Origin: Mycoplasmatales bacterium
Lineage (GTDB): Bacteria; Bacillota_I; Bacilli_A; Mycoplasmatales; JABAAY01
DNA length: 64,000 nucleotides
Reading direction: 5' to 3'
NCBI GenBank assembly: GCA_014238225.1
Contig: JABABL010000002.1
Span: forward strand, 17,664 to 81,663
Part shown: positions 27,966 through 31,508 of the stretch, piece by piece
How positions within the stretch are numbered: the stretch's first letter is position 1
Layout of the letters: each line of letters opens with the position of its first letter
The notes under the pieces: model-generated
What the model saw: only the letters and a program-made list of their open reading frames with translations
Told to the model about the DNA's origin: nothing
Database searches by the model: none
Position numbers and translations under genes: made by a program

Positions 27966-30527
27966 TTAAGAACCACAAGACACACAATCATCTGGATCAT
28001 TGATTGAACAAGAAAGTTGTTCATCAGCTAAATCGTCATTTTCAATTATGTCAGAGGAGAACTTTCTTGTTTCTTCAGTGCTTAATCTCGTTTGTTTCGA
28101 TTTTTGAGAAACGGTGAATTGAATTGCATTAGCGGCAGATTTGGTTCTCAGATAATATAAACCTGTTTTCAACGCTTTTTCTGGTGTAGAACCGAATACA
28201 AGATTGTCTTTAATAGACTCTAATTCTAGATTCAATAACTCTTTTTCTTCAGAACTTGCTTTTTTAATTTTTTCTTGAATTTCTTCATATTTGTTAAATG
28301 CTTGAACATCCTTAGTAACACCGTTCCCCCACCCATAAAAATGCATTGTATTTAAAGTTCCAAAATTAGGATCAGCTAAGTGTATATTCATGGACTGTGT
28401 TTGGTCTATGAAGGGAGCTCTTTGAGTGTAAAGGTTAATGACACTTCTTTGACTTATTTCCCAAACAGTTTTGTATTTTTGTTTTATTTTGTCGCTTACA
28501 TTTAAATTTTGGACACTACCGTTATTCAATTTAATTTCATTAATCAATTCCGGAGTTCACAAGTTATCCCTAACAAGGTCGTCAACAAGATATCTGTTGA
28601 CAACAATGTATTCACCTGCCAAGACTCTTCGCACATATAAATTAGAAATCTGAGCTTCACAACTTGCCTCATTGTTAAAAATAGTGGCTGTAGAGGCTGT
28701 AGGCATTGAACAAGTTAATAGTGAATTTCTAACACCATATTTTTTAATGTTTTCGCGCAATGTTTCTCAATCATAGTTATTGCTAGGTTTAACATTTCAC
28801 ATATCGAATTGTAGGACTCCTTTAGAAATTGGAGACCCTTTGTATGTTTTATATGTTCCGTTCTTTTTTGCAATGTCATTAGACGCCGTAAGAGCAGCAA
28901 AATAAATAGTTTCAAAAATTTTAATGTTTATTTCTTTTGCTTCCTCGCTCTCAAAATTTACATCAAGTTTGAAAAATACATCTGCTAGGCCTTGCGTTCC
29001 TAGTCCTATTGGCCTATGTTTAAGATTGGAAAATTTAGCAGATTCAACTGGATAAAAATTCACATCTATAACTTTGTCTAAGTTTTTTGTTACTAAGTAA
29101 GCAATTTGTTCCAGTTTTTTATAGTTAAATTTTTTGTTCTCAACAAAGCGAGGCAAAGAAATGCTTGCTAGATTACAAACCGCAACTTCGTCAGCGGAAA
29201 CGTATTCTAAAATCTCTATACAAAGATTAGATGTTTTCAATGTCCCAAGGTTTTTTTGATTGGATTTAATATTTGCAGAATCCTTGTAGGCAATGTACGG
29301 TGTTCCGGTTTCAATTTGAGATTCCAAAATTAACTTTCAAAGCTCTCTTGCTTTAACCTGTCTTATGTATCTTCCTTCGCTTTCATATTTTTCGTATAGT
29401 TCAACGAATTCTTCTGCATACACTTCTTGTAAACCAGGACACATTGATGGACACATTAGTGATCACATCTCGTCTTTTTTTACTCTTTGCATAAGCAAAT
29501 CATTCATTCAAATTGCGTAGAATAAGTCTCTTGCCCTCATCTCTTCTTTACCATGATTTTTTTTCAAATCAAGAAAATCAAAAATATCATTATGTCAAGG
29601 TTCAAGATAAATTGCAAAGGCTCCTTTTCTTTTCCCACCGCCTTGATCAACATATCTAGCAGTTTCGTTGTAAACCCTTAGCATGGGAATTAAGCCGTTA
29701 GAAATTCCGTTTGTGCCTGAGATATAAGAACCTGATGCTCTAATGTTAGAAACAGCTAATCCTATTCCGCCGGCTGTTTTAGAAATCATTGCAACTCGAT
29801 GCAGAGTGTCGTATATACCTTGAATACTATCATCGGTAACTGTTAACAAGAAGCAAGATGACAGTTGAGGGTGGACTGTTCCAGCATTAAAAAGTGTGGG
29901 AGAAGCATGAGTAAAATAATGTTCAGACATGTAGTTGTATGTTTGAATGGCCGAGTCAATATCGTTTTTGTGAATGCCAATTGCCACTCTCATATACATA
30001 TACTGTGGTCTTTCCACAGGATATAGTCCTTCGTGTTCATCATTGTGTTGTTTCAATAAGTATGATTTGAAAAGAGTTCCGTACGCCATAATATTGAAAT
30101 AATAATCCCTGGAACTATCTATGGCAGCGTTTAATCTGTCCTTGTTCTTCATTATTATGTCGTAGTGTTCTTTAGAGATTTGAGGAAGTCCGCGGTCTAA
30201 TACTTTATCGTGATATCGATAAAGTAATTCAGAACATTCAGTAAAAGTGCTTGGTGTATCTTTGTATAAAGCTTTTATTGCCAAGCGACCGGCCAAAAGT
30301 AAATAATCTGGATGTTTCGAACCACAAGAAGCGGCGGTTTCAATTGTTAATTGTTCCAATGATCTTGTAGAGACACCTGGATATAATCCATTAATCACTT
30401 TCTTGGCTATTTCAAGCGGAATTACGTATTTATTATTTAAACCAAACATTGCAGATTTAATAAATTTTAGTATTTTTTCTAGATTAACACTTTGCTTTTT
30501 GCCATTTCGTTTGACTACGTATGACAT
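27966..30527 (-). CDS. nrdA: Ribonucleoside-diphosphate reductase large subunit, eukaryote-type class Ia (R1/RRM1-like)
   Basis: 853 aa across about eight TGA-Trp codons. ATP-cone '[16 protein letters not shown]'. '[12 protein letters not shown]', 'PQLSSCFLL', '[59 protein letters not shown]', 'VAVCNLAS', '[13 protein letters not shown]' are present. The C-terminus 'CVSCGS' fits the eukaryotic CxxCGS tail. Confidence 0.9.
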
Positions 30528-30530
30528 GTT

Positions 30531-31508
30531 CTAAAAATCCGAATCAAAATTTATTGAATTATCTTTTTTACCAACACCGGCTTTTTTGTATTCAGAAACT
30601 CTTTTCTCAAAAAAGTTAGTTTTTCCTTCTAGCGAAATCATATCCATAAAATCAAAAGGATTCTTTGAATTATAGATTTTTCCTATGTGTATTCTTTCTA
30701 ATCAGAAGTCAGCCACATATTCTATGTACTGACACATTAATTTTGCATTCATACCGATAAGCGCAACAGGTAACGATTCTTCTACAAATTTTTTCTCTAT
30801 TTCAACTGCTTCTTTAAAAATATCTATTATTTGGTTTTTGGGCAATTTATTAACAACATGATTGTTATATAAAATAGTGGCAAATTCACAGTGTTTCCCT
30901 TCATCACGAGAAATTAATTCATTTGAAAAAGTCAATCCTGGCATCAGTCCACGTTTTTTCAATCAAAAAATCGCACAAAAACTACCAGAAAAGAATATTC
31001 CTTCCACAACCATAAACGCTATTAGTCGCTCCTGAAATGTTCCTTTGGTTATTCATTTAATTGCTCATTCCGCTTTTTGTTGTACAATCGGAATGGTTTC
31101 AATAGCCTTAAATAAGTATTCCTTTTCCTTAGGGTCTTCGATATAGGTGTCTATTAAAAGAGAATAAGTTTCGGAGTGAATGTTTTCCATTGCTCCCTGA
31201 AATGCATAGTAAAAACGCGCTTCGGTATATTGAACATCAACTATCATTCTTTCAAGAATGTTTTCATTCACAATTCCATCACTGGCAGCAAAAAAGGCAA
31301 GCACATACTTAATAAAATGTTTTTCTCCGTCATTTAGTTTTTTTCTTCAATCTGTTAAGTCTGCGTGTAAGTCTATTTCTTCTGCTGTTCAAAACATAGC
31401 CTCCACCGTTTTGTATTGTTCTCACAAATCAGCATGCTGAATTGGAAAAATAACAAACCTATCTTCTGTTTTTTCCAACAGAGGCTCTACTAAGTTTTTT
31501 TTGTCCAT
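30531..31508 (-). CDS. nrdB: Ribonucleoside-diphosphate reductase small subunit, eukaryote-type (R2/RRM2-like)
   Basis: 325 aa across TGA codons. '[12 protein letters not shown]', '[19 protein letters not shown]', '[18 protein letters not shown]', '[40 protein letters not shown]', '[17 protein letters not shown]' are present. It ends '...DSDF'. Confidence 0.9.

Follow-up and report, generated by a model that had tools for sequence, protein, structure and literature searches.

A eukaryote-like class Ia ribonucleotide reductase in the rplJL-rpoBC array of a deep-branching Mollicute, with its nearest relatives on Mahaphage-related genomes

How does a ribonucleotide reductase (RNR) of eukaryotic type come to lie within the rplJL-rpoBC array of a bacterium that reads TGA as tryptophan? 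The question is raised by 64,000 nucleotides (nt) of DNA from a Mycoplasmatales bacterium (assembly GCA_014238225.1, contig JABABL010000002.1, positions 17,664 to 81,663; hereafter, the window), in which nrdB and nrdA, encoding the RNR subunits R2 and R1, lie between rplL and rpoB. An earlier note, made from the letters of the window, likened the two proteins to animal and fungal RRM2 and RRM1 and implied an origin in eukaryotes or their large viruses. Our analysis upholds the likeness but not the origin: the genes probably specify a functional class Ia RNR, gained horizontally by a deep-branching Mollicute ancestor with genetic code 4 from an RNR lineage that now resides on huge genomes related to Mahaphages.

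Class and location of the reductase

The window has a G+C content of 33%, and its long open reading frames (ORFs) are apparent only when TGA is read as tryptophan (translation table 4). On the minus strand, the gene order is rplK, rplA, (two plus-strand genes), rplJ, rplL, nrdB, nrdA, rpoB, rpoC. The nrdB gene (31508 to 30531, minus strand, TAG stop) encodes R2, the radical-generating small subunit of class Ia RNR, with 325 residues and a match to Pfam PF00268 (Ribonuc_red_sm, 350 bits, E = 1.5e-104). After a gap of 3 bases between the nrdB stop and the ATG, nrdA (30527 to 27966, minus strand, TAA stop) encodes the 853-residue catalytic large subunit, R1, which contains an ATP-cone (PF03477, residues 3 to 89), Ribonuc_red_lgN (PF00317, residues 144 to 219), and Ribonuc_red_lgC (PF02867, residues 223 to 737), all above gathering scores; these match the ATP-cone, the all-alpha domain, and the ten-stranded barrel expected of a class Ia large subunit.

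The nrdB-nrdA pair belongs to class Ia and, within it, to the eukaryote-like NrdAe/NrdBe subclass; it is neither NrdEF nor the NrdAB of Escherichia coli type. Among solved structures, R1 scores highest against human RRM1 (985 bits) and yeast Rnr1 (907), followed by the enzymes of Pseudomonas aeruginosa (482) and E. coli (NrdA, 241) and by class Ib NrdE (133 to 146); R2 scores 420 to 429 bits against the mouse and human proteins (mouse, 429), 120 against that of Chlamydia, and 53 against that of E. coli. R1 exceeds the cut-off of the general NCBIfam model NrdE_NrdA (TIGR02506, 652 versus 341), whereas the models for class Ib (TIGR04170, 203 versus 750; TIGR04171, 68 versus 355) and for E. coli-type class Ia (NF006578/NF006576; alpha, 299.5 versus 813, and beta, 60.3 versus 346) are not reached. 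No nrdI-like ORF adjoins nrdB or nrdA, and there is no second RNR in the 64-kb window. Structure scores, NCBIfam models, and the trees described below thus bear out the class proposed in the earlier note; every R1 and R2 motif block that it quoted is present in the table 4 translations, and coordinates and flanking genes agree with its arrangement of R2 followed by R1 inside rplJL-rpoBC.

Relatives of the two subunits

In a search of 5.8 billion proteins, the best matches of R1 after itself were metagenomic proteins (P0003 to P0010; 57 to 59% full-length identity), followed by hundreds of Bacteroidota sequences at about 54% and then by animals at about 53%. The best matches of R2 (70 to 74%) reside on contigs equal in size to those bearing P0006, P0007, P0008, and P0010. 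A scan of prokaryotes (one genome per species, 185,579 species), made with six peptide patterns specific to the query, of which three include tryptophan, yielded nothing other than Bacteroidota, Bdellovibrionota, and a handful of odd metagenome-assembled genomes (MAGs), with identities of 49 to 56%.

Trees were constructed by neighbor joining from Kimura-corrected distances with 200 bootstraps, removing columns with at least 20% gaps and rooting on Acinetobacter; because gap columns were removed, the R1 insertion described in the next section adds nothing to them. In the R1 tree (66 sequences, 775 columns), the window sequence and that of a diverged relative (locus L090) group with P0003 to P0010 at 84% support, and this clade joins the group of the megaphage LR756502 at 90%, with eukaryotes, twelve giant-virus MAGs, Bacteroidota, Bdellovibrionota, and flavobacterial phages all outside. 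In the R2 tree (52 sequences, 322 columns), the window and L090 again group with the proteins of the phage-like contigs (81%), and eukaryotes lie outside.

Identities over the trimmed columns follow the same pattern. Mean R1 identity to the window is 62.5% for the phage-like clade, 58.3% for the LR756502 megaphage group, 58.2% for Bacteroidota, 56.7% for eukaryotes, 52.9% for giant-virus MAGs, and 36.7% for Acinetobacter, and the corresponding R2 values are 70.7% for the phage-like clade, 67.1% for Bacteroidota, 61.2% for eukaryotes, and 57.0% for giant-virus MAGs. The agreement of both trees and of the identities indicates that R1 and R2 were gained together from the huge-phage-associated branch.

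Three sets of database sequences were handled separately. P0002, annotated as a partial RRM1 of Cordylochernes scorpioides (1,480 residues, 1,810 bits), was rejected as a near-copy of R1: it consists of two nearly identical, fused tandem copies of that animal's own RRM1, which doubles the score. A search of 50%-cluster representatives returned mostly proteins of about 1,000 to 1,750 residues that matched in three to six stretches, presumably due to inteins or other inserts, and these were left out of the tree. Eukaryote-like nrdB-nrdA pairs also occur in bins labeled "Euryarchaeota archaeon" (L047) and "Candidatus Competibacteraceae" (L049), representing either further transfers or mis-binned Bacteroidota-like contigs.

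A lineage-specific insertion in R1

Residues 734 to 785 of R1 (GNGVTKD...GSTPEKA, 52 residues; 28173 to 28328, minus strand) constitute an insertion between the motifs MHFYGW and LKTGxYY(LR), directly ahead of the β-strand bearing Y791 and Y792, and its conserved flanks read GWG[GN]GVTK...TPEKALKTG. Eukaryotes, giant-virus MAGs, Bacteroidota, and flavobacterial phages have a 3-residue spacer at this site (e.g., KQG or KKG). The same flanks enclose insertions of about 20 to 23 residues in P0005 to P0010, of 84 residues in P0003 and P0004, and of 20 residues (GGGVTKSSLDEKYGATPEKA) in the phage genome LR756504.1. A 40-residue insertion of unlike sequence occupies the site in LR756502.1, L096, and L097.

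Among the sequences examined, the GWG[GN]GVTK...TPEKALKTG type is confined to the window lineage, the phage-like contigs, and LR756504.1. It is absent from the best 80 bacterial loci of the 185,579-species scan, all 80 of which have a 3-residue spacer, and from every eukaryotic sequence and every sequence of nucleocytoplasmic large DNA viruses (NCLDV) examined; 2 of 57 IMG/VR loci have an insertion at the site, both of the LR756502 type. On these alignments, the insertion is a derived character common to the window R1 and the R1 of Mahaphage type.

An AlphaFold2 model of R1 (49-sequence alignment; predicted local distance difference test [pLDDT] score, 79; predicted template modeling score, 0.84) folds the window insertion into a helical hairpin, with predicted helices at residues 741 to 756 and 759 to 777 (pLDDT, 85 to 93) just ahead of the Y791/Y792 strand. 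Lying beside the radical-transfer tyrosines, this conserved insertion is a structural feature that RNR enzymologists may find worth examining.

Phage nature of the nearest relatives

The contigs bearing P0003, P0005, P0008, and P0010 have G+C contents of 25 to 29% and contain many ORFans. They use the standard code, with TGA as the stop in 15 to 28% of their genes, and encode DnaB, a T4-type split topoisomerase II, RNase R, initiation factor 3 (IF3), RtcB, and GIY-YIG proteins. Their affiliation with phages came through the topoisomerases of two of them and was direct in LR756504.1: topoisomerase II of L088 shares 96% identity with its LR756504.1 counterpart (a neighboring gene, 70%), and topoisomerase II of L002 shares 54% with the LR756504.1 protein and 40 to 45% with those of LR756501-3 and LR745206. 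Curated circular Mahaphage genomes of 634, 636, 642, and 735 kb, with predicted Bacteroidetes hosts, were described by Al-Shayeb et al. (2020; PMC7162821); we equated the LR records with these genomes by their matching lengths (634,780, 636,363, 642,428, and 735,411 bp), the accessions being absent from the text of that article.

Two of these genomes have peculiarities at the RNR locus. The R1 gene of LR756504.1 (L178, the segment from 434000 to 446000; approximately 3731 to 5556 within it) is broken after residue ~295 by an insert of some 1.8 kb that contains a 309-residue ORF and is probably either an intron or the insertion of a homing endonuclease, and the R1 gene of its close kin L088 is uninterrupted. 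In L086, which bears P0010, nrdB is directly followed (13511 to 21151) by about 25 successive ORFs of 56 to 132 residues (most of them 99 to 132), without Pfam matches and interrupted only by a 180-residue IF3 homolog; this run may be a tandem array of paralogs.

Residence and selection in the host genome

The nrdB-nrdA pair is a long-term resident of its genome, fully ameliorated and under strong purifying selection. Tryptophan is specified by TGA at 14 of 16 codons (7 of 9 in R1 and 7 of 7 in R2), and all seven TGA codons of R1 occupy tryptophan columns that are invariant in the alignment; in R2, W40 aligns with mouse W103. In the genes of the phage relatives, tryptophan is encoded only by TGG, and TGA serves as a stop. 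The G+C content at third codon positions (GC3) of nrdA and nrdB is 0.26 to 0.27, as in the neighboring genes, versus 0.10 to 0.19 in the phage R1 genes, and G+C content, GC3, and codon usage are all indistinguishable from those of the neighbors. The view in the earlier note that TGA-encoded tryptophans mark a long residence is thereby strengthened, and the comparison of codon usage and GC3 that it proposed gave the same answer.

The order rplJ-rplL-nrdB-nrdA-rpoB recurs at 99.6 to 99.85% nucleotide identity in two other metagenome assemblies (L084 and L085) and in L090, where RpoB is 96% identical to that of the window and nrdA and nrdB retain 87 to 91% nucleotide identity. Between the window and L090, synonymous divergence (dS) is 0.6 to 0.8, and the ratio of nonsynonymous to synonymous divergence (dN/dS) is 0.019 for nrdB and 0.036 for nrdA, compared with 0.025 for rpoB, 0.037 for rplJ, and 0.060 for rplL. 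Under code 4, neither nrdA nor nrdB contains frameshifts or internal stops.

The recipient lineage

In the homolog search, RpoB of the window has no close relative other than that of L090. Its next matches are of Spiroplasma type (55 to 56% identity over 87 to 88% of the length; P0319 is from Spiroplasma attinicola), with Erysipelotrichales and Bacilli MAGs further away at 51 to 52%. In a neighbor-joining tree of RpoB, the window sequence joins the Spiroplasma clade with a split support of 100% but at a distance of 0.72 substitutions per site; long-branch attraction is possible. This placement and the use of code 4 identify the host as a deep-branching Mollicute.

In a code-4 contig with Spiroplasma-like RpoB (L176), rpoB directly follows rplL and the slot is empty; in two Erysipelotrichales-like relatives (L091 and L177), the slot holds a methyltransferase gene. 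Because these RpoB relatives lack nrdB-nrdA and the RNRs known from Mollicutes belong to the NrdFIE type, the insert is particular to this lineage. Only AT-rich chance matches were found in searches for flanking direct or inverted repeats or mobile-element scars, there are no Rfam elements around the insert, and no phage genes were seen near nrdB-nrdA, whose flanking genes, rplL and rpoB, are those of a cellular genome.

Origin of nrdB-nrdA

The relationships of both subunits, the shared insertion, and the recoding all fit a probable transfer from the RNR lineage of Mahaphage-related genomes to a Mollicute ancestor. Under this scenario, nrdB-nrdA would have landed between rplL and rpoB and later exchanged TGG for TGA codons while acquiring the GC3 and codon usage of the host. 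As judged by the nesting of the window sequence, phage to bacterium would be the most parsimonious direction.

Several observations weigh against such a source. The trees are distance-based neighbor-joining trees with a thin sampling of eukaryotes (human, yeast, sea star, and pseudoscorpion, plus the giant-virus MAGs), and bootstrap support within the clade is low, so that the closest sister of the window sequence is not pinned down. The 185,579-species scan recovered no Mollicute, and absence from other Mollicutes is well supported if short of proof: the scan did not find the genome of the window itself, its patterns could overlook more remote relatives, and the three that contain tryptophan could also overlook code-4 genomes, on which the other three would have worked. 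Two of the four phage-like contigs, L001 and L086, have no match to known phages or PHROGs among the large ORFs tried: PHROGs yielded nothing for ten large ORFs from the phage-like contigs, and large ORFs of L086 and L001 had no tblastn match among GenBank phages, so the viral nature of these two contigs is read from their gene content. Moreover, the adjacent nrdB-then-nrdA order of the window is that of Bacteroidota and not that of the phage-like contigs, where nrdA precedes nrdB (L001 and L086) or no nrdB adjoins nrdA (L002 and L088). Finally, the standard code and predicted Bacteroidetes hosts of the phages leave a direct encounter between phage and Mollicute without explanation.

The last three of these observations would also be accommodated if the Mollicute and the huge phages had each drawn the RNR with its insertion from some other cellular lineage that is as yet unsampled (such as a Bacteroidota-like or another host-associated bacterium), or if the genes had passed from the Mollicute to the phages. 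We regard this as unlikely, since the insertion occurs in none of the cellular genomes among the best 80 loci of the scan and the window lineage forms just one branch within a large set of phage-associated sequences, the next outgroup being another Mahaphage group.

A bolder version of the phage origin, in which a huge phage handed the RNR directly to the code-4 Mollicute ancestor and the insertion is a functional module next to the radical-transfer strand, is speculative, and we consider it decidedly doubtful. Direct delivery would imply that Mahaphage-like phages or their relatives have, or had, hosts beyond Bacteroidota. If the insertion were a functional module, its hairpin could tune docking between the alpha and beta subunits or oligomer-based regulation, and class Ia RNR would gain a new structural variant.

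Transfer straight from a eukaryotic host, or from one of the large DNA viruses of eukaryotes, as the earlier note implied, is very improbable. Identity to animal and fungal enzymes is appreciable (57% for R1 and 61% for R2), the top solved structures are those of human, mouse, and yeast, and Lundin et al. (2010; PMC3019208) derived the bacterial members of the group ultimately from eukaryotes. However, for both subunits, eukaryotes and giant-virus MAGs lie outside the supported huge-phage clade and are more distant in identity than both the phage-like sequences and Bacteroidota, and the insertion is found in no eukaryotic or NCLDV sequence examined; among the few eukaryotes in these neighbor-joining trees, none is the immediate sister of the window R1 or R2. 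The apparently eukaryotic motifs, including the CxxCGS tail of R1 and the terminal phenylalanine of R2, are common to the whole prokaryote-associated group of huge-phage sequences, with Bacteroidota next by identity, in which both subunits fall. This is essentially the outcome that the earlier note had named as speaking against its reading.

Although the window stems from a metagenome assembly, the chance that nrdB-nrdA represents an assembly chimera, contamination, or a decaying nonfunctional remnant is negligible, because its junctions recur in three other assemblies, including the relative with 87 to 91% identity, and its reading frames are intact, host-like in composition, read through in-frame TGA tryptophan codons, and constrained (dN/dS of 0.02 to 0.04).

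These findings have several implications. A Mollicute joins the short list of bacteria with a eukaryote-like class Ia RNR, and huge phages are indicated as carriers of the NrdAe/NrdBe enzyme across distant lineages. The locus provides a clean and datable example of the recoding of foreign genes to an alternative genetic code (TGG to TGA at 14 of 16 tryptophan codons), with an essential metabolic operon lodged in the strongly conserved rplJL-rpoBC array. It also cautions that "eukaryotic motifs" are poor evidence of transfer from a eukaryote to a bacterium.

Predicted function and expression

R1 and R2 retain the full set of catalytic, radical-transfer, and metal-ligand residues. In R1, C225, N434, C436, E438, and C451 align with human C218, N427, C429, E431, and C444, and Y791 and Y792 align with Y737 and Y738. 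The C-terminal CVSC motif (27975 to 27986, minus strand) supplies C848 and C851, which are aligned to human C787 and C790 and invariant in alignments A1 and A2. In R2, W40, D77, E108, H111, and Y115 align with mouse W103, D139, E170, H173, and Y177, and E169, E203, H206, Y307, and the C-terminal F325 align with E233, E267, H270, Y370, and F390.

With these residues in place, the nrdB-nrdA product should behave as an ordinary oxygen-dependent class Ia RNR. The steps deduced from residue conservation and the established class Ia mechanism are as follows. R2 would build a diferric center with D77, E108, H111, E169, E203, and H206 as ligands and form a tyrosyl radical on Y115, and the radical would travel by way of R2 W40 and Y307 to R1 Y792, then Y791, and finally C436. 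Nucleoside diphosphates would be reduced to their deoxy forms by C225 and C451, assisted by N434 and E438, and the C848/C851 pair would act as a redox shuttle, passing on electrons received from either thioredoxin or glutaredoxin. At the N terminus, the ATP-cone (30261 to 30521, minus strand), an allosteric domain, would serve as an on/off switch responding to ATP and dATP.

The sole notable residue change lies within this domain: R1 residue 58 (30354 to 30356, minus strand) is glutamate, where human RRM1 has Asp57 and where at least 90% of the 49 aligned homologs have aspartate. In mammalian R1, this aspartate is required for feedback inhibition by dATP, and the substitution may alter allosteric control.

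The spacer between rplL and nrdB (31509 to 31627, minus strand, 119 nt) contains a Shine-Dalgarno-like AAAGGGG positioned 7 to 8 nt ahead of the nrdB ATG, and the 3-nt gap between nrdB and nrdA suggests translational coupling. In the spacer between nrdA and rpoB (27874 to 27965, minus strand, 92 nt), the earlier note had seen a promoter-like TTGTGT-N18-TATAAT. The sequence is present, although our tool scored it as GTGTCA-16-TATAAT (27959 to 27932; 10 of 12 matches), and it does not rise above background: 19 such sites were found versus 19.4 expected in shuffles, with promoter and terminator scans alike performing no better than on shuffled sequence. Since neither spacer contains a terminator-like site on the minus strand, read-through from rplJL is the simplest model, and nrdB-nrdA is probably expressed in this way. 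Such read-through would link the supply of deoxynucleoside triphosphates to growth-rate-regulated genes.

Other features of the window

The insert is flanked upstream by rplL (31628 to 31990, minus strand), identified by the Pfam family Ribosomal_L12 on the identical locus of L084 and L085, and downstream by rpoB (24340 to 27873, minus strand, start at 27873), identified by its RNA_pol_Rpb2 domains and by the homolog search. A second insertion in the rplKAJL-rpoBC array lies between rplA and rplJ (32609 to 33668, plus strand) and consists of an isochorismatase-family gene (205 residues) and a 143-residue ORF without a Pfam match; the pair is kept in L090.

Several ribosomal proteins are over-long (33669 to 34718, 34712 to 35359, and 7812 to 8771, all on the minus strand). 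L1 (347 residues) has an acidic, lysine-rich N-terminal extension of about 148 residues ahead of its Pfam domain, L11 has an acidic C-terminal tail (203 residues in L090), and the L3 ORF extends for 319 codons from stop to stop and ends in a tail rich in glutamate and lysine. The gene for L23 (15651 to 16349, plus strand) is not situated between rplD (7159 to 7818) and rplB (6317 to 7219) but stands alone upstream of rpsL on the opposite strand; its tail, a repeat of about 130 residues rich in lysine, alanine, threonine, and proline, has a weak match, below the gathering score, to the histone-H1-like HC2 family.

Three tandem paralogs of about 410 to 425 residues each separate rpoC from the L23/rpsL region (16735 to 20524, plus strand), with signal-like N-terminal segments and hydrophobic cores rich in glycine and alanine; the one of the three that was scanned had no Pfam match. 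The usual str-S10 junction is broken between tuf and rpsJ (9077 to 11388, minus strand) by msrB (Pfam SelR domain) and a 592-codon ORF (9077 to 10855) that, by eye, looks like a putative oligoendopeptidase F.

Comparison with known systems

The NrdAe/NrdBe subclass is already known from Bacteroidota and their phages. Eukaryote-like class I RNRs in Bacteroidetes were read by Lundin et al. (2010; PMC3019208) as the result of transfer from eukaryotes to bacteria, and the clade is called NrdAe by Burnim et al. (2022; PMC9669993). Eukaryotic RRM1 and RRM2 share with the window proteins their domain architecture, functional residues, CxxCGS tail, and terminal phenylalanine of R2, with identities of 55 to 58% (R1) and 60 to 62% (R2). 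They differ in lacking the insertion, in having Asp57 rather than glutamate in the ATP-cone, and in branching outside the window clade, and the window R2 lacks the long eukaryotic N-terminal tail, its alignment beginning at mouse residue 71.

RNRs of Bacteroidota and Bdellovibrionota belong to the same subclass and share the adjacent nrdB-then-nrdA arrangement and the catalytic and tail motifs (R1 identity, 56 to 60%; R2 identity, 64 to 69%), but they use the standard code and have no insertion ahead of the YY strand (80 of 80 loci). The class Ib/Ie NrdEF(I) enzymes of Mollicutes serve the same function, the aerobic reduction of nucleoside diphosphates, in the same bacterial class but represent a different subclass. 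Class Ib NrdE has no ATP-cone. NrdEF of Mollicutes needs NrdI for activation, as in the NrdFIE type exemplified by the nrdFIE operon of Mesoplasma florum (bioRxiv 10.1101/348268), whereas no nrdI adjoins the window genes.

Mahaphage and Mahaphage-related proteins (LR756504.1, 636 kb; LR756502.1, 642 kb; P0003 to P0010 and P0122 to P0138) are the most similar to those of the window, sharing the subclass, the ATP-cone, the CxxC tail, and the site of the insertion, with the highest identities over trimmed columns (R1, 60 to 64%; R2, 68 to 74%). They differ in their standard code, their lower GC3 (0.10 to 0.19), and the order of their genes, with nrdA ahead of nrdB or without an adjoining nrdB, and, in LR756504.1, in a split R1. 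The insertion itself differs in size, being 20 to 23 residues (P0005 to P0010 and LR756504.1) or 84 residues (P0003 and P0004) in the Mahaphage type and 52 residues, predicted to form a hairpin, in the Mollicute.

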